Assembly: GCA_963768715.1 (NCBI GenBank)
Contig: CAVYJC010000011.1
Coordinates: 4,050-68,049, forward strand
From: an uncultured Bacteroidota bacterium
GTDB taxonomy: Bacteria; Bacteroidota; Rhodothermia; Rhodothermales; DATKEJ01
DNA length: 64,000 bases
Reading direction: 5' to 3'
The notes beneath the pieces are model-generated. The model ran no database searches. It was not told the origin of the DNA and was given only the letters and a program-made list of their open reading frames with translations. Positions 5,961-41,261 of this stretch are shown here, one piece after another (positions within the stretch are counted from its first letter, which is position 1; the number at the start of each line of letters is the position of its first letter). Made by a program: the position numbers and the translations under genes.

Positions 5961-7338
5961 TTAGAGTGCGTGCACTGGTTCCTTGACAATTGGACTTCGG
6001 CGGCGCAGGCCGACAAACGCAAACGTTGCAATGAGCGAAGCCAGGAAACTCCACAGCAGGATGTGCCGGATCCAGTATGTCCGCGCACCGTCCGTCGGAA
6101 AATTCGCCAGGGCCAACGGCGGCTTGAACCAGTACCGCTCGAGGTTTCCCCAGAAAAACGTACTGTTCTTGAAGAGCATGCTGTAGTCGTACCGGATATC
6201 CTCCACATTCGGCGGCCGCCGCCATTTGTAGATCGAGCTCGTAACGAACTGCCGTTCGACGATCCCGTTGACGTCCGCGAAATCGGCGTTGACGAACGTG
6301 CCGTCCTCGCCTTCGAGTTCCGGCCACCCCAGTCTTTGTAAACGCGAGCCGTCACCCGTCCCATGCGTCGTGCTGTCGCAGTTCTGACAGTTCCACCGTA
6401 TTGAGAAAGCGTCCGTTTTTATCCTTGGCGTAGACGAGACCATAACTCGGGTCCACCCATGCCCAGCGCCCTTGCTCGGGAATCCAAGCCTCTACCCATG
6501 TATGCCCGGTGAGGACGAAATCGTTGCCTTCAAGCCGAGCTCCCTGGATCAGTCTTGCCTGAAGGCCGGCCCGGTTCGCGAAATAGGTGAACATCTGGGC
6601 ATGCTGCGTGCACCATCCCTGCGACTCACCTGAGTCCATTTCCTTGTAGATCTGGAAGGGCGTCTTCCAGCGGAAATCCGGAGGGGGCGTGCCGCGGCAC
6701 TTTTGCCCGAGCTTGCTGCGGAAATGCGCCATGAGCTTCTCGAGGCGCTCGGTGACGGTGTCGTCGGACCGGATGCCGACCTGATTCTTCAGGATGTCGT
6801 CGGTTGCTGCGAGATCGTCCCGGCTCATGTAGCCGTAATCGTCGACCCAGGCGCTGACAGGATACTCTTCGAAGCGTGCTGTGGGCACGTCCGTTCGGAT
6901 GAGATACGTATCCGGCCGGGGCAGGCCGCGGTTCGTATGGAATGCCTCGGGGAGAAACCGGATCTCGATTTCAAGCGGCGGAAAGAGTCCTTCCGGTTCC
7001 GGGATCGCTTTGTAGAGGTGCATCGCTTCATCGCCGACCGGAGTAGGGAAGAAGGGGTTTGCACCCTGGTTCTGCGAGTAAGGCGCGCCTTCTTTGAGAA
7101 TGCGCCAACCCTCGACAGGGGCGTTCCAATTGAGCACGGCCTCGATGCCGCCGTCGACCTCTTTCCAGTCGGAAATCACCGGCCGGTCGGTCGAATAGTA
7201 AATGGTCGCGTAGGTGGTCGGATAGTAGCTGTCCTCCATGTCGCGATTCAGGAAGAAGGCGATGTTTGCAGCCAGGAGAAGGAGTGTGAGGGCGCCCAGA
7301 TAGGGAAGCCATCGACGTCGATTGACAGAGTCGGACAC
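5961..7338 (-). CDS. transglutaminase-like cysteine protease-fold membrane protein, with an apparent frameshift at 6352-6357
   Basis: Cys-His-Asp pattern: GWCTQHAQ ... GHTWVEAW ... WVDPS. N-terminal TM. ORF 6352..7338 ends ..HDAWDG*. Removing one base of the CCC run at 6355-6357 continues into ORF 5961..6443 (DGSRLQRLGW..., C-terminal TM). Confidence 0.6.
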
Positions 7339-7443
7339 AGGAGTAGCGGGTAGATCAGGTTTCCAGTCAGTCTATCTATCCAATATCCTGATTATCGGAC
7401 GGGTTATCCAGTGGGGTGTTATATCAAGGATCAATCGTCGACG

Positions 7444-7504
7444 CCCGCACGGGAATAAATCCCCATGTTCCCCACGCCCGCACGGGAATAAATCCCCGTG
7501 CTAC
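7444..7504 (-). repeat. two adjacent REP copies (variant 2; the left one is degenerate)
   Basis: cccgcacgggaataaatcccc[a/g]tg. The reverse complement reads GTAGCACGGGgatttattCCCGTGCGGG, i.e. a 5' GTAG followed by a hairpin. Confidence 0.75.
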
Positions 7505-7612
7505 AATGAATCACGCCCGCTAAAGCGGGCTGGGTGCGAAATGCCTTCCGGGTTCCAGCCGCATTACGATAGGGGCAATCCACAGCCCTGCGGCAGCAGG
7601 GCGGGACGTATT

Positions 7613-7641
7613 GTAGCACGGTTGCTTCAGCGCCGTGCGGC
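7613..7641 (+). repeat. REP copy (variant 1)
   Basis: GTAGCACGGttgcttcagcgCCGTGCGGC, preceded by the hairpin gccctgcggcagcagggc. The same module recurs 3x at 8271-8566. Confidence 0.75.
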
Positions 7642-7710
7642 CATGGCAGACGGCGCGACCGTCGAGGAGAGACGACAGGACCTGCAACCCCAACACCAGC
7701 TACCCGTGAT

Positions 7711-8110
7711 TCACCATCGTTCCAGATCGTCAATGAGTCTGCCTTTGCGGTGATGCGTCTCTTGATTCAAGACGTATTGCACGGTCCTGCCAATCTCCTG
7801 ACGCCTGATGGTGAATGCTCCGTACTCTGATTGCCAGGCGAAACTTGTTGGGCGAAGCATCCGACTCATCTTGAATGATGTGGCCCCCTTTGATGCGATC
7901 CACAAATGTCGCGACATCCAATGTTGGCGGAAGCGAAACCACCACGTGGACGTGGTCTTCAATCCCTCCTACGGCGTGCACAACCGCATTCAATTCTCGC
8001 GATTGCTTCCGTATTTCTGCATGGAGCGTCTCGCAAAGCGACCCCGAAATAAGAGGAGCTCGGCCCTTCGTTGACCAAACAAGGTGGTAATGCAGCTGGC
8101 AATATGGCAT
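7711..8110 (-). mobile_element. REP-associated tyrosine transposase (RAYT, IS200/IS605 TnpA-like Y1 HUH enzyme), with a frameshift at a G5/C5 run
   Basis: MPYCQLHYHLVWSTKGR..., HUH motif DHVHVVV. After deleting one base of ccccc at 7884-7888 the frame continues KGATSFKMS..FAWQSEYGAF..VQYVLNQETHHRK (catalytic Tyr / NQxxHH). The ORF track splits it into 7730..8209 and 7711..7962. Confidence 0.8.
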
Positions 8111-8202
8111 GGGTGTCGTGCGTTTCTGAATAGACACCTGGGGGCTACAAACGTAACCTGGATGCAATCGCAATCTCACCACGTGCGTCGATGACCCCAA
8201 CA

Positions 8203-8230
8203 CCCGCACGGGAATAAATCCCCGTGCTAC
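8203..8230 (-). repeat. REP copy (variant 2)
   Basis: Identical to the 7477..7504 core, followed by the hairpin cccgctgaagcgggc. Confidence 0.75.
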
Positions 8231-8270
8231 AATGGGTCAACCCCGCTGAAGCGGGCTAACGACAGTCGAA

Positions 8271-8566
8271 ATCGCCAGGAAGTGCCGAAAATTGAGGACA
8301 ACCCAGCCCTGCGGCAGCAGGGCGGGACGTATTGTAGCACGGTTGCTTCAGCGCCGTGCGGCTGGCGTCCCAATCGCCAGGAAGTGCCGAAATTTGAGGA
8401 CAACCCAGCCCTGCGGCAGCAGGGCGGGACGTATTGTAGCACGGTTGCTTCAGCGCCGTGCGGCTGGCGTCTGAATCGCCAGGAAGTGCCGAAATTTGAG
8501 GACAACCCAGCCCTGCGGCAGCAGGGCGGGACGTATTGTAGCACGGTTGCTTCAGCGCCGTGCGGC
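8271..8566 (+). repeat. tandem array, 3 x 102 bp, each unit ending in a variant-1 REP
   Basis: Unit starts (atcgccagga) at 8271, 8373 and 8475. GTAG of the REPs at 8334, 8436 and 8538. Confidence 0.9.
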
Positions 8567-8592
8567 CATGGCTGTCGCGTTCTCGCCAACGA

Positions 8593-10798
8593 CTAATGAC
8601 CAACAACGACCATCAGCCTCGACTGCGTGAAGTCGCCCGATCTCATTTCCAGGACATAGGTCCCGCTCGTGAGGCGGCTCGCGTTGAATGCCACGGTGTG
8701 ATTACCGGCGGTGAACTGTCGTCGGCCACGGTTTCCACTTCACGCCCGAGCATATCGAAGATCTTCATCACCACATGCGCATGTTCTGGAAGCGCGAAGC
8801 CGATAGTCGTCGATTCTTCGAACGGGTTGGGGTAGTTCTCGAAGAGCTCGAAGGATTGCGGCAGCGTTTCCTCCTTTTCGGTCCCGATGTTGGCTACGGT
8901 GACTCGGCCACCGCCCACAATAGGTTCCCGTTCGGTGACTTCACCTTGCCCGTGATCTGGTCGCTGGCGTTGACCTCGAGTTGCCAAACGACCTCGGCCG
9001 TCTTCTTGTCGTCCGGGTCATGAACGAACAGCACCGCCTTCTTTTCCGAAGAGGTCGCATAGCCCGTAACGGTCACCCAGTCAGATCCGCCGCGCGGCCA
9101 TCCGATCAGAGCTCTACGTCCTGTCCCTTGGGGACTTCGTTGCGGATGAACTCGAATGCTTTTGCCCCCTTGGCATTGTCATCGGTATTTCCGCCTTCTA
9201 CGACCAACGGAAGGTTGCGGGCCTGGATGTATGTCTTCTTGCCGTCGTGCAACTCGTCTCCTTGCAGGCCGCCGAACGGTCTCGTCTGGTTTCCGGCCAT
9301 CGCCTGCATGAGATCGAGGATGAGTTGGTCTTGATCTACCTCGCCATCCTTCTGCGGCAACCGGTCCGAAAAGTTGTGCTTGTTCGCCAGCCAGATAAGC
9401 GAATTTGCGGTCGACGTCGGACCGCACTCGTTGTGTTTCTGGGCGATGTCCGGCATCCCGTTTGGATCGTTCGGGCCCGGAATGAAGTCGACGAACGTTA
9501 TCTCAGGAAAGGGCACAGTTGCCGGTTCCGGTTCCGGTTGATCGGGGACTTCCTGTCCATTGGGATCGTTATCGCCCCACTGGTTCTCCTCAAGCGGTAC
9601 CGTGCTGACCAGATCCGCCATAATCAGTTCGATGGGTGTGTTATCGGGCACGTCGATCAGGTCGGAAGTAAGCCCGGCGACGAAGGGGATCTCCGTTTCG
9701 GCGCCGATCGTCATGTCAGGCAACGGAAACCATGCACTAAACCGCGGAGTGCTCAAGAGTCCGTTCGTACCGGGGAGCGGAACGTTTCGAAGAACCCACT
9801 CGCTCTGATCCGAGTCTTTCGAGACCGGGTAATCGGCGATCATGCCGTCGCCGTTAAGATCTACAACGACGTTCAGGTACGTGTAGTCGTATTCGTCCGA
9901 AACGCTTGCCACCTTGAAGTCGAACGTTCCATCCGGCATCGGGTCACCGAATCGGTCGATGACCCGGTAAAGGGCGGATCCGACAGCATCGCGACCGGTG
10001 CATAGAGCGGAATCCGGAAGTTCCCGAACAATCCAAGAATCCCTGACCCGACTGGGTCAGCTCGACCGAGTAGCCGCTGAATCCATGCGGCTCGGTGATG
10101 ACCCAGCCGTCGCGCATGAATTCGATCAGATTATACGTGCCGAGCGGCACGTTCTCAAAAGTGGCCATTCCCGATGTGTCGGTAGAAGCGACACGTTCGC
10201 CTTCGTCCAGCTCGCCGTTGTCGTTCTCGTCGAGGAAGAAGTCCCAGCCCTCCATGTAGGGCTCTCCTTCGTCCATCGTCCCGTTGCCGTTGAAATCGTT
10301 GTACTTCGCGGCATACACGGTTCCCGACGGCGGCGTGACCTCGATATCGCAGCTCTCCTGGCTTTCGCCACTGTACTGGGAGGTGAGTGTCGCCGTGCCG
10401 AGGTCGACCGTTGAGATCAGGAAGGTGAACGTGACGACCACGCCTGGATTTACGGTACCCATTGCAAGGGATGCGTTTTGCGCTCCGGGCGTCCAGGTCC
10501 CCTGGGTCGTCGTGAAGTCTGAGAGTGACAAAAGGTTCGTTACCGTAACGGTAAACGAGACGTTGTCTATGGCGACCTCTCCGTCGTTGGTGTACGTTCC
10601 CGTGAACTGAATCGCGAAGCCGAGGGGGAGCGATTCGGGACACTGAAGCTCGAACGCCTTTGACAATGCCGAGGAATACTCGACATGCATCTCACGCGTA
10701 ACGTTTTGCGCGGTCGCGGGAATCACAAAGCAACAGAGCAAGGCAGCGGTGGCGCCTGCGACGGAGAAGGCTCGCGTCGCAAAGTTTGTGACGTTCAT
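8593..10798 (-). pseudogene. T9SS-secreted C39-like (papain-fold) peptidase with SdrD/Cna-B-like repeat, broken by at least 5 frame changes
   Basis: Start MNVTNFATRAF.. (signal peptide) at 10798. Contains 'YNDFNGNGTMDEGE..FLDENDNGELDEGE', 'KHNECGPTSTANSLIWL' and 'WVTVTGY..VLFVHDPDD'. The CTD 'ELFENYPNPFEESTTIGFALPEHAHVVMKIFDMLGREVETV' is completed only after a shift near 8713-8723: 'QFTAGNHTVAFNASRLTSGTYVLEMRSGDFTQSRLMVVVGH*', with the stop at 8593. Further breaks lie near 8894-8905, 9095-9110 and twice within 9960-10045. The track shows four separate ORFs. Confidence 0.6.
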
Positions 10799-10895
10799 GG
10801 CTCGGAAAGGGCGGGACGGTGGATTGGGAGGGACGCTTCCCAAATAAGAACTTTGAGGAATATTCCAAGAGACGTCCGTCGTCCCGAGTCGGTGC

Positions 10896-11405
10896 TTACG
10901 CCACACGGTAGCGCAATTCGGCGAACCCCTTCCCAAGCGGCCGCGCCGATACGAGCTCAAACGTTGCGTCTCGCGGCAGGAGCGCCTTGCCTGCACCCAG
11001 CGTCCGGCTCGCCACCGTCACGACCAACTCGTCTAGAAGTCCCGCGTCCAGGAACTGCCCCGCCAACTCCCCTCCGCCGACCACCCAGACGTTGCCATGC
11101 GAGGCCATGTCTGGGTACACCGTCGCTACGTCCCCTGAAACGAAGGTCACGCCCGCGCGGCTCGCGAACGCACCGTGCGTAAACACCCACACGGGACGGT
11201 CAGGATACGGCCAGTCGTGACCCTGCGCCACGTGTCGGAGCAAGAATTCGTAGGTGGATTTACCCATCGCGATTGCCCCGATACTCTCCAGGAACGGCAC
11301 ATACGTGTCCTCGTTAGGCGGCGGGAGCCGATCGAGCCAGGAGACGTCGTCGTCCAGCGTGGCAAGGAAGCCGTCGAGCGACGTGGCGGTGTAGAATGTG
11401 ACCAT
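10896..11405 (-). CDS. dihydrofolate reductase family protein (RibD C-terminal domain type)
   Basis: 'FYTATSLDGFLA...IAMGKSTYEF...VWVVGGGELAGQFLDAGLLDELVVTV' is typical of the family. Confidence 0.75.
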   Translation of the reverse strand: MVTFYTATSLDGFLATLDDDVSWLDRLPPPNEDTYVPFLESIGAIAMGKSTYEFLLRHVAQGHDWPYPDRPVWVFTHGAFASRAGVTFVSGDVATVYPDMASHGNVWVVGGGELAGQFLDAGLLDELVVTVASRTLGAGKALLPRDATFELVSARPLGKGFAELRYRVA

Positions 11406-11597
11406 GACCCGGGATTCAAAGAGGATTCATACGGCTCGTTGCGGGGAATATATGATGGATGCCGTCTGGCATCGACTTAGTCTATCCGGGACGCATCCCG
11501 ATCAAGAATGGCAACCGCCATCCTGTACATCATCTTCTGGTACGCAATACATTCACAGTGATATCGTCCGTCGTCGAAATTAATCAACGAACCGGAA

Positions 11598-24748: not shown

Positions 24749-24844
24749 CCAACTGTCATCCTGAGCCCGACTTCAGTCGGGTGAAGGACCTAAGGGTGCA
24801 ACTCGAAGAAGTGTGTGCCGGGCGATGCAATGGCGCTAATGTTG

Positions 24845-24909
24845 CGTCATCCCCAAAGAGGTCCCTCCTTCCTCTCCCGACTACGTCGGGATCGGTCGTC
24901 GGGATGACA
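24845..24909. repeat. 65-bp inverted-repeat element (CGTCATCCCC ... GGGATGACA)
   Basis: Same termini and the shared 'tccctccttc' core as the element at 42161-42217. Internal hairpin cccgactacgtcggg. Confidence 0.7.
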
Positions 24910-25253
24910 AGCGCCGGCCCTAACAAACGCGCGGGCACGACGGTTCAGGCCGCGATCGTTGCCCGCGCGACAGCGCCACACGGTCCCCCTCCATGAGGGG
25001 GCGGCTAAGGCCGAATTTATTCGGGTGCAGCCGGGGGAGGTCGCGTCCGGATAAACCGCCACACGCAGCTGGGGGAGGTCGCCACCGCCACCAATCTCTG
25101 GGTCAGCGTCAGGCGAACGGCCATTTGATCCGGCTCCGCCCGTCGTCGTATCACCTATATTCGTTAAGGCGGCAATCGCAAGAGAACGAAGTCCGCCGCA
25201 TTGGAAGCAAGCCTATTGACATCGGCTATCGGATAACGCCACCAGCAATCACT

Positions 25254-33126: not shown

Positions 33127-33213
33127 GCCCAAGTGGCGGAATTGGTAGACGCGCTACGTTCAGGGCGTAGTGGCCTTATGGCCGTGGAGGTTCGAGTCCT
33201 CTCTTGGGCACCA
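33127..33213 (+). tRNA. tRNA-Leu (anticodon CAG), type II with long variable arm, CCA encoded
   Basis: Acceptor GCCCAAG/CTTGGGC; anticodon stem CTACG/CGTAG with loop TTCAGGG; variable arm TGGCCTTATGGCCGT; T-arm GGAGG-TTCGAGT-CCTCT; ACCA end. Confidence 0.9.
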
Positions 33214-38105: not shown

Positions 38106-38394
38106 CTTGGCGAGGGGTGCCAACCGATCTCTTCCCGCAGCACGAAGCAAAACATCCGCTGAGCGCAGCGCCCGAGTCACTGAAGCCGGAGTGACGCAGC
38201 CCTTCCGACCACACCCCGACAACAACGACAGAGAATCCCCTGTCATGAATACCGCGAAGTTCCGTCACGCGGTTCGATCCCGTTTTGTTCTGTTGGTACG
38301 TTTCGCAAATCACGTTGCAGCGCCGGGCCCACATGGTCGGTCCGGTGCAAGACATGAACACGAGGTTGGTCATTACGCAAATGGGAAATCAACT

Positions 38395-39612
38395 ATGAAC
38401 CTGAGCCTCATCGGAAAATCCATAAGTGAATCGGTCACCCTGAAGCTCAACGAGACGGCGGCCATTCTTCGGGCCAAGGGGGAACCGGTGATTCATCTCG
38501 GCGGCGGCGAACCCAAATCCAGGGCCCCGCTCGACGCCATCGTGGCCGCCGCAGGGTTGATCAATAGCGGGGAGGTACGCTATACCCCTGCGGATGGCAC
38601 GCCCGCATTGAAACAGGCAATCATTCGCTACACGGAGGAATTCTACGGTCGGAAGGTGGAGCCCGAAAACGTGATTGCTTCAGGCGGGGCCAAGCAGTCA
38701 ATCATGGTCGCCCTGCAGGCCATCCTGAATCCACAGGAAGAAGTGATCTTCCCGGCCCCATACTGGGTGAGCTACCCGGAAATGGCGAAGATGGTCGGCG
38801 CGGTCCCCGTGCCGGTCCCTCCCGAGGACGGTTCTTTTTATCCCCGGCTGGAAGACATCGAGCGGTACGTCACGTCCTACACGAAGGCCGTGATCATCAA
38901 TAGTCCCAACAACCCGACGGGGGCGATGTATCCCGAGCAATTCATCGCCGAGATCGTGGAGTTCTGCGAAGAACGCGGCCTGTTTCTGATCATGGACGAT
39001 ATCTACCACCGCCTCGTGTTCGACGGCAAGCGGCCCATCAGCTGCTACAAGTTCTCCAAGGATCTGAGCGATAACTCGAAGCTCATCGTGATCAACGGCG
39101 TATCCAAGCAGTACGCCATGACAGGGTTCCGAATCGGCTGGGCCGTAGCCAGCAAGCGGATCATCAGCGTCATGACCAACATCCAGTCCCACCAGACGTC
39201 CGGGCCTTCAGCCGTCATGCAGGTCGCCGCTGCGGCCGCGCTCAACGGCATCCAGTCAAGCGTGGAAAGCCTGCGAATGACACTGGAGAACAACCGCAAC
39301 GTCATGGTGGAGCGGCTGAGAGCGTTCGACGGCGTCAAGACGGTCGTGCCGGACGGCACCTTCTACTGCTTCCCCGACTTCCGGGCTTATGAGAAGGATT
39401 CGACCAAGCTGAGCAAGTTCCTGCTGGACAAGGTCCGCGTGGTCACGGTTCCGGGGGTTGAGTTCGGGATGGAAGGCTTCCTGCGCCTGTCCACGTGCGG
39501 TACGATCAAGGACATCACCGAAGGCATCGACCGGATCAAGTGGGCGCTCGATCCCAATGCACCGAACGAACTGTTTATTGGCGAGAGAAAGTTAGTGAGG
39601 GACTGGGTATGA
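38395..39612 (+). CDS. class I/II aminotransferase (aspartate aminotransferase-like)
   Basis: 'IHLGGGEP', 'IINSPNNPTG', 'NGVSKQYAMTGFRIGW' (PLP Lys). ATG at 38395. Confidence 0.85.
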   Translation: MNLSLIGKSISESVTLKLNETAAILRAKGEPVIHLGGGEPKSRAPLDAIVAAAGLINSGEVRYTPADGTPALKQAIIRYTEEFYGRKVEPENVIASGGAKQSIMVALQAILNPQEEVIFPAPYWVSYPEMAKMVGAVPVPVPPEDGSFYPRLEDIERYVTSYTKAVIINSPNNPTGAMYPEQFIAEIVEFCEERGLFLIMDDIYHRLVFDGKRPISCYKFSKDLSDNSKLIVINGVSKQYAMTGFRIGWAVASKRIISVMTNIQSHQTSGPSAVMQVAAAAALNGIQSSVESLRMTLENNRNVMVERLRAFDGVKTVVPDGTFYCFPDFRAYEKDSTKLSKFLLDKVRVVTVPGVEFGMEGFLRLSTCGTIKDITEGIDRIKWALDPNAPNELFIGERKLVRDWV

Positions 39613-41261
39613 CCAAATATCTCGAATTCGACACGCCTGCAGGCAAACACGCCGGCGAGCTGGCAAGCGATTTCAAATTGAAGAATCACGGGCTCGCTTA
39701 TCTGGACAGGGTCTTCTGGAACCTGCCCTCCTCGGCCCTTTACGAGGAAGCGGTATTCCGCGGCGAGGGCCACATGATGGAGGGCGGGCCTTTTCTTGTG
39801 CACACCGGAAAGTGGACCGCGCGGGCGGCCAACGACAAGTACATCGTCCAGGAACCGACCACCGCAGAGAAGATCTGGTGGGGCATATACAACCGCCCCA
39901 TGGCGCCGGAGAAGTTCAGCGGGCTCTTCGGGCGGCTGCAGGCCTTTCTCCAGGGTGAAGAACTCTTCGTCCAGGACTGCTACGTGGGTGCGGATCCCGA
40001 ATACCGCATGCCTATCCGCGTGATTACAGAGCACGCCTGGCAGAGTCTCTTCGCGCGGAACATGTTCATCACGCCGAAGACCCGCGACGACTACAGGCGC
40101 CACATTCCGGAATTCACCCTCATCGCCGCTCCCTCCTTCAAGCTGGACCCGAGCGTGGACGGAACGCGCACGGAAACTGCCATCGTTATCAACTTCGCTC
40201 AGCGGCTCGCGCTGGTTTGCAACAGCAGTTACGGAGGAGAAATCAAGAAGTCGTTCTTCTCCATCATGAATTTCCTGCTGCCCCTGCAGAACGTGATGGC
40301 GATGCATTGCTCGGCCAACGTCGGCGATGGGGGAGACGTGGCCCTGTTCTTCGGACTGAGCGGTACGGGGAAGACCACGCTTTCGGCCGATCCAAAGAGA
40401 AAGCTCATCGGCGACGACGAGCACGGCTGGAGTGACAACGGCGTCTTCAATTTCGAAGGAGGATGCTATGCCAAGGTGATCCGGCTCTCGGCTGAGAATG
40501 AACCGGAGATCTACGCCTGCACCCGCAGATTCGGCACCATTCTCGAAAACGTGGTCTGGGATCCCGCCACACGGCACATCGACCTCGACGACGACAAGGT
40601 GACCGAGAACACGCGGTCTTCGTATCCGCTGGAATTCATTCCGAACGCCATGCCTGAGAAGATGGCTCCGTCGCACCCGAAGAACGTCATCTTCCTGACC
40701 TGCGATGCCTCGGGCGTCCTTCCTCCAATCGCACGTTTGAACATGAACCAGGCGATGTACCACTTCATCAGCGGCTACACCTCCAAACTCGGTGGCACTG
40801 AAATCGGCCTCGGCGCCGAACCCGAAATTACTTTCAGCGCCTGTTTCGGCGGTCCCTTCATGGTCCATCACCCCTCTTACTACGCCAATCTGCTGAAGCA
40901 GAAGATGGAGAGGTACGGAGCCACGTGCTGGCTCGTGAACACGGGCTGGGTGGGCGGCAAGTTTGGCGTGGGCAAGCGCATCAGCATCCGCCATACGCGC
41001 AACATGCTGGATGCCGCCCTGGAGGGCAAGCTGGACGGCGTGAAGTATCGCAAGGACAAGCTATTCGGCTTCGAAGTGCCGCTTACCTGTCCCGACGTGC
41101 CCTCCGACGTCCTGGAACCGTCCAATGCCTGGGGAAATAAGGAGGAGTACTGGATGAAGTACGACGCGCTCGGCGCCCGCTATATCGAGAACTTCAAACT
41201 CTTCGCCGGCGAATGTTCCGACGAAGTCGTCAAGGCAGGCCCAAAACGGCTCGGCAAGTAG
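39609..41261 (+). CDS. pckA: phosphoenolpyruvate carboxykinase (ATP)
   Basis: 'TGKWTARAANDKYIV', 'FFGLSGTGKTTLSADP', 'IGDDEHGW', 'NTGWVGG'. ATGA overlap with the upstream stop. Confidence 0.95.
   Translation: MTKYLEFDTPAGKHAGELASDFKLKNHGLAYLDRVFWNLPSSALYEEAVFRGEGHMMEGGPFLVHTGKWTARAANDKYIVQEPTTAEKIWWGIYNRPMAPEKFSGLFGRLQAFLQGEELFVQDCYVGADPEYRMPIRVITEHAWQSLFARNMFITPKTRDDYRRHIPEFTLIAAPSFKLDPSVDGTRTETAIVINFAQRLALVCNSSYGGEIKKSFFSIMNFLLPLQNVMAMHCSANVGDGGDVALFFGLSGTGKTTLSADPKRKLIGDDEHGWSDNGVFNFEGGCYAKVIRLSAENEPEIYACTRRFGTILENVVWDPATRHIDLDDDKVTENTRSSYPLEFIPNAMPEKMAPSHPKNVIFLTCDASGVLPPIARLNMNQAMYHFISGYTSKLGGTEIGLGAEPEITFSACFGGPFMVHHPSYYANLLKQKMERYGATCWLVNTGWVGGKFGVGKRISIRHTRNMLDAALEGKLDGVKYRKDKLFGFEVPLTCPDVPSDVLEPSNAWGNKEEYWMKYDALGARYIENFKLFAGECSDEVVKAGPKRLGK

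Follow-up and report, generated by a model that had tools for sequence, protein, structure and literature searches.

Repetitive extragenic palindromic (REP) sequences and the REP-associated tyrosine transposases (RAYTs) are the textbook case of a domesticated bacterial transposase. The locus described here lies in a 64,000-nucleotide stretch of DNA (the window, in what follows) from an uncultured Bacteroidota bacterium (contig CAVYJC010000011.1), and consists of a gene for a homologue of the Y1 HUH single-stranded DNA (ssDNA) transposases, the Y1 gene, together with the GTAG-footed hairpin repeats that surround it. The closest described systems are the REPtrons of Escherichia coli, Pseudomonas and Stenotrophomonas (Nunvar 2010; Bertels & Rainey 2011; Ton-Hoang 2012; Corneloup 2021, PMC8266576). 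In a REPtron, as at the window locus, a single resident Y1 HUH gene lies between inverted hairpins that carry GTAG at their 5' foot, the repeats form inverted doublets that can be folded into one long hairpin, several REP variants occur within one locus, tandem clusters include pieces of flanking DNA, and gene-free copies occupy other sites. In the TnpAREP enzymes that have been tested, the GTAG helps to choose a CT or CA cleavage site (PMC8266576). Unlike the enzymes of these REPtrons, the window protein is not of class 2, having the tyrosine motif YVLNQETHH in place of Y---NP; its repeat has two parts, the GTAG being preceded at 6-13 nt by a small hairpin that is conserved and covaries; and its repeats appear clustered and sparse, whereas the REPs of E. 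coli number hundreds of copies.

Two other groups of Y1 proteins bear on the comparison. TnpAY1 subclass 1.2, as defined by Quentin 2018 (PMC6006769), has the signature DH[IV]H / WQ / Y---Q--HH (YIKNQKEHH), and a median length of 148 aa; genomes hold 1.7 copies, which are 36% identical to each other, and its members are described as low-copy and without insertion sequence (IS) features. The window locus shares with this subclass all three motifs, a short protein, a range of Bacteroidetes-type and cyanobacterial hosts and, judging by the single copy in the 64 kb and in each related contig, apparently a low copy number. The subclass is probably the same branch as IS200 Group 3 of Bertels 2017 (PMC5581495), the one IS200 group found there to behave like RAYTs, with no duplicates, none on plasmids and abundant 16-mers flanking the genes. 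The IS200/IS605 elements IS608, ISDra2 and IS200 provide the closest sequences and structures and the same catalytic set of HUH, Y and Q; in IS608 the tetranucleotide 5' of the hairpin foot is an established guide, a role that GTAG may also have here. GTAG repeats outside the Proteobacteria have been described in Thermomicrobium roseum (GTAG-23) and Anabaena (GTAG-15) (Di Nocera 2013, PMC3733652). Compared by description, these too form blocks at a few loci, are accompanied by extra small palindromes and occur as TT and HH dimers, and in its clustering the window module is nearer to Thermomicrobium GTAG-23 than to the E. coli REPs. Our literature search found no paper describing GTAG repeats with subclass 1.2 proteins, or a bipartite repeat of this kind.

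We present evidence that the locus is probably of the REPtron type, that is, a resident, single-locus Y1 HUH gene with its own hairpin repeats, and that it belongs to the subclass 1.2 branch and not to the canonical RAYTs.

Results

The Y1 gene encodes a protein with the subclass 1.2 signature

The Y1 gene runs on the minus strand from an ATG at 8110 to a TGA at 7713-7711 (Table 1). Two reading frames meet within it at an A3G5 run, which on the plus strand is a C5 run at 7884-7888. Once one base was dropped at this run (7884-7891), the repaired protein had 132 aa, exactly the length of each of its three closest database relatives (72, 65 and 64% identity). It matched the Pfam family Y1_Tnp (PF01797) at 78.8 bits (cut-off 23), with an alignment spanning profile positions 4-121 of 121. 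A profile built from its clade matched the solved TnpA structures of IS608, ISDra2 and Sulfolobus with E values of 1e-15 to 1e-18, and with the protein as a single query the closest solved structures were likewise the TnpAs of IS608 and ISDra2. The TnpAREP structures (E. coli) gave no match to the clade profile even at E<=10.

The protein has DHVH at residues 52-55, WQ at 92-93 and YVLNQETHH at 112-120; the Y---NP of canonical RAYTs is absent. The key residues are the HUH pair H53/H55, W92-Q93, Y112, Q116 and H119-H120, and in an alignment with relatives down to 38% identity D52, H53, H55, W92, Q93, Y112, Q116 and H120 were invariant. Judged at the level of motifs, by the signature given in Table 1 of PMC6006769, this is a TnpAY1 subclass 1.2 protein, and as far as its sequence places it by family it falls outside both the canonical RAYTs and the ordinary IS200 transposases. 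No second copy of the Y1 gene was present in the 64-kb window, in the syntenic contig L003 or in the other contigs examined.

Table 1. Coordinates of the features at the Y1 locus, in window positions. R1 denotes the covariance model of the bipartite module.
Feature	Position	Strand	Evidence	Remarks
Decayed variant-2 copy	7441..7471	-	3-mismatch match 7444-7471	GTAG foot now GGAA; no small hairpin
Bipartite module, variant 2	7474..7540	-	R1 65.7 bits, E 8e-14; exact match	
REPIN-like inverted doublet ('TT' dimer)	7474..7645	.	inverted repeat, fold	GTAG feet inward
Bipartite module, variant 1	7575..7644	+	R1 53.7 bits; exact match	
Y1 HUH ssDNA transposase homologue, TnpAY1 subclass 1.2 type	7711..8110	-	ORFs, translation, Pfam/NCBIfam, alignment	
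Conserved upstream region of the Y1 gene	8111..8199	-		contains AGGTTACGTTTG (fits TAnnTTTG) and GTGTCTATTCAGAAA
Bipartite module, variant 2	8200..8266	-	R1 65.7 bits; exact match	96 nt upstream of ATG, in the gene's orientation
Tandem array, 2.9 copies of a 102-bp unit	8270..8566	+	Tandem Repeats Finder: 98% matches, score 573	

The break in the reading frame is probably an assembly error

The frame break had been noted in the preliminary description of the locus as a property of the gene. It is real in the assembled sequence; however, a comparison with contig L003, which shares about 13 kb of syntenic sequence with the window (88-97% nucleotide identity), suggested another origin. An intact 736-aa open reading frame (ORF) of L003, encoding a protein of the type IX secretion system (T9SS), spans at least five frame changes in the window, an intact 459-aa transglutaminase-like ORF spans two, and two further genes have one each. 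The alignments between the window and L003 contain 27 single-base indels in about 13 kb, 16 of them bases missing from the window; those that break ORFs intact in L003 are numerous in window 5964-10798. The Y1 allele of L003 is uninterrupted. Since the neighbouring genes are also frameshifted relative to L003, we consider the break in the Y1 gene to be, with good probability on this sequence comparison, an assembly indel and not biology: the window assembly is prone to indels, and the simplest view of a break within a homopolymer is that it adds to these errors. A programmed frameshift was considered and rejected, because the relatives all have uninterrupted 132-aa ORFs and the neighbouring genes are broken in the same way. 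L003 itself has a split melibiase gene. Both assemblies look like unpolished long-read assemblies, so caution is needed with any 'pseudogene' in the window.

The repeats are bipartite modules arranged as inverted doublets and a tandem array

Six full GTAG-hairpin modules and one decayed copy surround the Y1 gene, and the two REP variants given in the preliminary description were recovered as exact matches. Variant 1 is GTAGCACGGTTGCTTCAGCGCCGTGCGGC, that is, GTAGCACGG-ttgcttcagcg-CCGTGCGGC, and occurs on the plus strand at 7613, 8334, 8436 and 8538 (four matches in the window, none expected from shuffles). Variant 2 is GTAGCACGGGGATTTATTCCCGTGCGGG, that is, GTAGCACGGG-gatttatt-CCCGTGCGGG, and occurs on the minus strand at 7477-7504 and 8203-8230; this pattern, too, is not expected by chance. 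Its decayed third copy was confirmed (Table 1), and a similarly degraded variant-2 copy is present in L003. Both variants consist of GTAG and a stem of 7-10 bp, and within each variant the full modules are near-identical. Their core GTAGCACGG is confined to this locus within the window, with six matches against 0.3 expected.

The accessory hairpins reported earlier, gcccgctaaagcgggc and gccctgcggcagcagggc, were both found at the locus. The small hairpin ahead of variant 1 is gccctgcggcagcagggc and that ahead of variant 2 is gcccgctttagcgggc. Thus, in the module at 7474..7540, gcccgctttagcgggc is followed by the linker gtgattcat, TGTAG and the hairpin GCACGGGGAT-TT-ATTCCCGTGC, and in the module at 7575..7644, gccctgcggcagcagggc is followed by the linker gggacgtat, TGTAG and the hairpin GCACGG-ttgcttcagcg-CCGTGC. 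As both variants fit the same layout, the 'accessory' hairpins are integral parts of the repeat. It is therefore a bipartite module in which a linker of 6-13 nt connects the small hairpin to the GTAG and the main hairpin.

The arrangement around the gene bore out the description of a Y1 HUH transposase with REP variants on both sides. GTAG hairpins lie 96 nt upstream of the Y1 gene, in its own orientation, and 76 nt downstream, in the opposite one; the downstream hairpin belongs to the module at 7575..7644, the REP closest to the 3' end of the gene, which is inverted relative to the upstream REP. The nearest REPs on either side are therefore inverted, with their GTAG feet distal. Beyond the upstream module, each unit of the tandem array holds one variant-1 module (8296-8365, 8398-8467 and 8500-8569; R1 52.7-53 bits), and L003 has a three-copy array identical in kind. 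The gene also lies between two directly repeated units of about 170 bp, which have diverged in their middle part and are built in the order variant 2 (minus), small hairpin, spacer, second hairpin, variant 1 (plus).

The facing pair of variants proposed as a REPIN-like element was also recovered. In the doublet at 7474..7645 about 35 nt separate the two modules, and 70 nt separate the 3' ends of the accessory hairpins. Inverted arms of 17-23 nt (CCGTGCTACAATG... / ...ATTGTAGCACGG), 23 nt in this left doublet, join the two variants. When 7470-7650 was folded as ssDNA, a minimum of -44.7 kcal/mol was obtained against a shuffle mean of -35.6 (z -2.9), with the REP arms paired in one long hairpin. 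A search of the locus against Rfam gave nothing at E<=1, and terminator-like matches were no more frequent than in shuffles.

The region between the upstream module and the start codon is conserved. Its blocks are invariant in the window, L004, L005 and L011, although the proteins are only 64-72% identical, and the motif AGGTTAYGTTT(T)G recurs ahead of the Y1 start, at a distance of about 45 nt (window 8140-8160, minus strand; L004 528-545; L005 4250-4268). Its fit to TAnnTTTG may mark a -7 promoter box of the Bacteroidetes type. A scan for the sigma-70 consensus upstream of the Y1 gene found none.

The small hairpin covaries across a family of repeats in metagenome contigs

A scan of metagenome contigs with the pattern TGTAGCACGGN{10,11}CCGTGCGG, which fixes the foot and lower stem only, returned at least 120 loci. 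Among the matches listed, the stem was longer by at least three Watson-Crick pairs beyond the pattern in 80 of the 120 distinct copies, and these comprised 61 different inserts; among shuffles the share was 6%. In 82 of the same 120 copies (10% of shuffles) there was a small hairpin with a perfect stem of 5 bp or more, ending 6-13 nt (in one case 19 nt) 5' of TGTAG; the listed copies had 31 different small-hairpin stems, with loops that were mostly TTCA, TTTA or TTGA. In the alignment of these matches all six pairs of the small hairpin vary on both sides, and the covariation score was 0.239, compared with 0.105 in shuffles (0/500 of which reached the observed value) and at most 0.091 when the partners were slid. 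RNAalifold applied to the raw MAFFT alignment recovered solely the stem fixed by the pattern, and was replaced by per-sequence hairpin counts against shuffles and by pair counts on the specified structure. A scan of the genome_contigs set with ATTGTAGCACGGN{10,11}CCGTGCGG gave two single hairpins, one in a Phycisphaerae metagenome-assembled genome (MAG) and one in an uncultured MAG, about the number expected by chance.

The commonest REP subtype among the matches listed (metagenome contigs L016, L037, L053, L092, L093 and L110) sits in a composite element of about 200 nt, which is bounded by the inverted repeats CATGCGCGTCAAGCTAAG / CTTAACTTGACGCGCATG and holds two small hairpins and a pair of inverted REPs. 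This element is flanked at six different sites by direct repeats of 10-13 nt, which suggests, from the sequences of the flanks, either that the target was duplicated or that the element entered the loop of a host palindrome. Such flanks are not expected from a Y1 mechanism.

Modules accompany the gene in distant relatives

Loci retrieved by means of the protein alone provided an unbiased test of the association between gene and repeat (n=9). Seven of the nine had modules at a distance of no more than about 250 bp from the gene; these loci span four phyla, and the most distant protein is 39% identical. L003, L004 and L005 (64-72% identity) have GTAGCACGG-type modules on both sides of the gene, L004 and L005 being close relatives in two further genomic contexts in which the nearest hairpins on each side are directly oriented. 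Upstream of the gene in L128 (50%) are seven GTAGCCGGTGG... modules, each preceded by a small hairpin. In the cyanobacterial locus L131 (Coleofasciculus, 39%) the gene lies between copies of agtccgcgccggcggact-tggtttgt-GTAGCCGCGAAT..., L132 (Promineofilum, 44%) has an array with TGTAG between two hairpins, and L136 (Akkermansiaceae, 42%) has inverted modules on two sides, like the window. L129 and L130 have other flanking hairpin repeats, with no clear GTAG. The stems differ in L096, L128, L131 and L136 while the GTAG and the two-hairpin layout stay, and R1 finds no module of L128-L131 at E<=0.001 because the model is built around the GCACGG stem; a regular expression and inspection by eye identified these modules. 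Relatives of 38-72% identity with the module at their flanks come from contigs of the Fibrobacteres-Chlorobi-Bacteroidetes (FCB) group, Chloroflexi, cyanobacteria and Verrucomicrobia.

Approached from the side of the repeat, a homologue of the gene was present in 11 of the 120 listed loci, always 35-238 bp from a REP. Among the 46 listed loci with at least 1 kb of sequence on both sides, 41 had no homologue within 1 kb.

The repeats occur at other sites in related contigs and the gene behaves as a resident

Two contigs closely related to the window carry the repeat at sites that differ from it. L027, which matches window 10354-11509 at 85-91% identity, lacks the gene and holds a solo doublet, the same unit as that at 7474..7645. 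L095 matches window 38377-39402 at 94% identity over its positions 1320-2341, and a doublet and a toxin-antitoxin pair are present there at a site where the window has neither; no target-site duplications were seen around the window-type doublets in L027 and L095. Among the matches listed, at least nine further contigs without the gene carried window-type variants (seven came from one sample), and one other REP subtype was spread over five contigs of a single sample, where it had at least three different flanks. Other long contigs, of about 10 kb, usually had their modules gathered in a single cluster. In L095 the intergenic site that is empty in the window holds a REP doublet, genes for an AbrB/MazE-type antitoxin and a PIN-domain toxin, and another REP. 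This cargo appears to be bracketed by REPs, as the Y1 gene is in the window.

The Y1 gene holds an identical position in the window and in L003, with flanks that match at 93-97%, and each of the identical homologues P0045 and P0094 was found in a single genomic context across samples. From these sequence contexts, the gene behaves as a resident and not as an IS.

Short fragments matching window genes adjoin some doublets in other contigs. In L086 (151-238) a REP doublet abuts 54 nt matching the 3' end of pckA (window 41199-41252), and in L027 (932-1181) a doublet abuts 47 nt matching the 3' end of a T9SS gene (window 8677-8723). Such bits of flanking DNA appear, from these matches, to travel or recombine with the repeats.

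The comparison with L003 also revealed a cassette swap, in which window 7609-8100 and L003 9965-10415 have diverged between near-identical flanks. The flanks are 98-99% identical up to just past the start codon, and again from ...TACAATacgtccc on; between them, the Y1 coding sequence and the downstream hairpin are 59-77% identical per 100-column block, and the proteins 72%. The right boundary falls exactly at the foot of the downstream REP (window ccgtgc|TACAAT, L003 cccgtgcggAT|TACAAT), and the downstream REP of L003 has a variant-2-type loop. Because the upstream block AGGTTAYGTTT(T)G...GTGTCTWT..AGAAA is common to otherwise diverged loci, homologous recombination between paralogous loci could explain the swap. 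An exchange mediated by the enzyme at the REP foot is a speculative alternative, and the break in homology at that foot hints that the enzyme can also exchange a cassette between two repeats.

Neighbourhood and host

The host, an uncultured bacterium of the FCB group, has a G+C content of 58%, and several proteins encoded near the Y1 gene have T9SS sorting domains. The best named relatives of the phosphoenolpyruvate (PEP) carboxykinase encoded in the window are about 80-82% identical and mostly from the FCB group (Bacteroidetes, Ignavibacteria, Kapabacteria and Gemmatimonas), with Acidobacteria also represented. Two other palindromic elements lie in the intergenic region upstream of an aminotransferase gene. 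The first (24754-24910) is bounded by the inverted sequences TGTCATCC...GGATGACA and contains the hairpin agcccgacttcagtcgggt; the second (24975-25044) is a hairpin, cggtccccctccatgagggggcggctaag, that also adjoins REPs in L012, L008, L004 and L036. A tRNA-Leu (CAG) at 33127-33213 was the sole window sequence to reach an Rfam gathering score.

Discussion

The reading that the locus is of the REPtron type, on the subclass 1.2 branch, has to be set against several observations that weigh against it. As assembled, the Y1 gene is frameshifted. The protein passed the NCBIfam equivalog model for IS200/IS605 transposases (NF033573; 66 bits, cut-off 55) and failed the model for REP-associated tyrosine transposases (NF047646; 34.6 bits, cut-off 80). 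PMC6006769 has the entry 'REP: no' for subclass 1.2 in its Table 1 and describes the members as generally lacking terminal secondary structures. In an unfiltered search of the 64 kb with R1 the six modules scored 53-66 bits, whereas the best score elsewhere was 16.4 bits, and the source genome may therefore hold few copies. In the 120 metagenome loci the bases TGTAGCACGG...CCGTGCGG are conserved by construction, having been fixed in the search pattern, and the metagenome contigs are not assignable to genomes that carry the gene. Finally, an activity of subclass 1.2 proteins on ssDNA would rest on analogy with IS608 and TnpAREP.

Some of these observations touch directly on the preliminary description, which had presented the gene as a RAYT within its own REP cluster. 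What stands is a REP-associated Y1 locus with GTAG feet; the assignment to the RAYTs does not, in view of the subclass 1.2 signature, the failed RAYT model and the missing Y---NP. That description had also named two outcomes as telling against it, repeats restricted to the one locus and a protein that groups with ordinary IS200 transposases. No copy was found elsewhere in the 64 kb, yet gene-free copies are present in the relatives L027 and L095; the IS200 equivalog model was passed and the RAYT model was not, but with its subclass 1.2 signature the protein is not an ordinary IS200 transposase either.

If the gene were part of an ordinary autonomous IS200-type IS, the hairpins on its two flanks would represent the left and right ends of that element, and copies without the gene would have arisen by deletion, in the manner of miniature inverted-repeat transposable elements. 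The equivalog score, the Y---Q tyrosine motif, the TnpAs of IS608 and ISDra2 as the closest solved structures and the direct orientation of the nearest flanking hairpins in L004 and L005 are all in keeping with such an element. In the window and in L136, however, the GTAG hairpins are inverted, so that no strand holds both 'ends', and each flank is a doublet or an array and not a distinct left or right end. Unlike IS200/IS605 elements, the locus has no tnpB gene and was not seen in multiple identical copies, with no second copy of the gene in any contig examined; the gene occupies the same site in two strains, and identical homologues occur in one context only. The motif Y---Q--HH, moreover, points to a subclass that is low-copy and without IS features (PMC6006769), and we regard an ordinary IS as unlikely. 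Much the same holds for the idea of a dead relic, in which a true pseudogene would be surrounded by fossil repeats kept by recombination or by a host use as terminators or mRNA stabilisers. The frame break at 7884-7891, the one decayed variant-2 copy and the lack of copies elsewhere in the 64 kb would fit this picture, but single-base indels relative to intact L003 ORFs fill the window and make the break most likely an artefact, the L003 allele is uninterrupted, the catalytic residues are all intact and the six full modules are near-identical within each variant. A relic is accordingly improbable in our view.

A third alternative is that the hairpins are structural or regulatory elements of the host and lie beside the gene by coincidence. 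The 41 of 46 testable listed sites that are not beside a Y1 gene would agree with this, as would the fact that enzyme action in subclass 1.2 is postulated by analogy. Coincidence is nevertheless very hard to reconcile with modules within about 250 bp of the gene in seven of the nine protein-retrieved loci, from four phyla and down to 39% identity, or with a gene at 35-238 bp in 11 of the 120 listed repeat loci, and the stem changes by lineage while the GTAG and the two-hairpin layout are kept. We consider this explanation highly improbable.

For a locus of the REPtron type on the subclass 1.2 branch, a mechanism can be proposed by analogy with IS608 and TnpAREP. In ssDNA, for example the lagging-strand template, the module would fold so that the small and main hairpins are split by a linker ending in TGTAG. 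A dimer of the enzyme would bind the foot of the main hairpin, where the GTAG may guide the choice of a nearby cleavage dinucleotide. Y112 would then cut and form a 5'-phosphotyrosine link, with H53, H55 and Q116 holding the metal. Rejoining would move or copy inverted doublets (about 170 nt, REPIN-like) to new intergenic sites while the gene stays where it is, and arrays and cassette exchanges may arise by recombination or strand transfer between adjacent units. We infer the binding, guiding, cleavage and joining steps, and any role of the small hairpin, from these better known enzymes.

Contrary to the published 'no REP' entry for subclass 1.2, GTAG-footed hairpins flank the gene here and in seven of nine protein-retrieved relatives. 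The branch thus has GTAG-footed repeats arranged as in a REPtron and has yet kept the Y---Q motif of the IS200 type. It is possible, and we put it forward tentatively, that subclass 1.2 Y1 proteins, catalogued as IS200-like and without REPs, serve as the enzymes of REPtrons that form a widespread class of their own, not described before, with a bipartite repeat, present in the FCB group, Chloroflexi, Cyanobacteria and Verrucomicrobia. The covariance model and the search pattern can be used to annotate such repeats in MAGs. If this view is correct, subclass 1.2 REPtrons would be a living intermediate between mobile IS200 elements and domesticated RAYTs, and the locus would offer a concrete intermediate with which to ask how RAYTs arose from IS200: whether the GTAG acts as a guide as the tetranucleotide does in IS608, what role the small hairpin has, and whether domestication occurred once.

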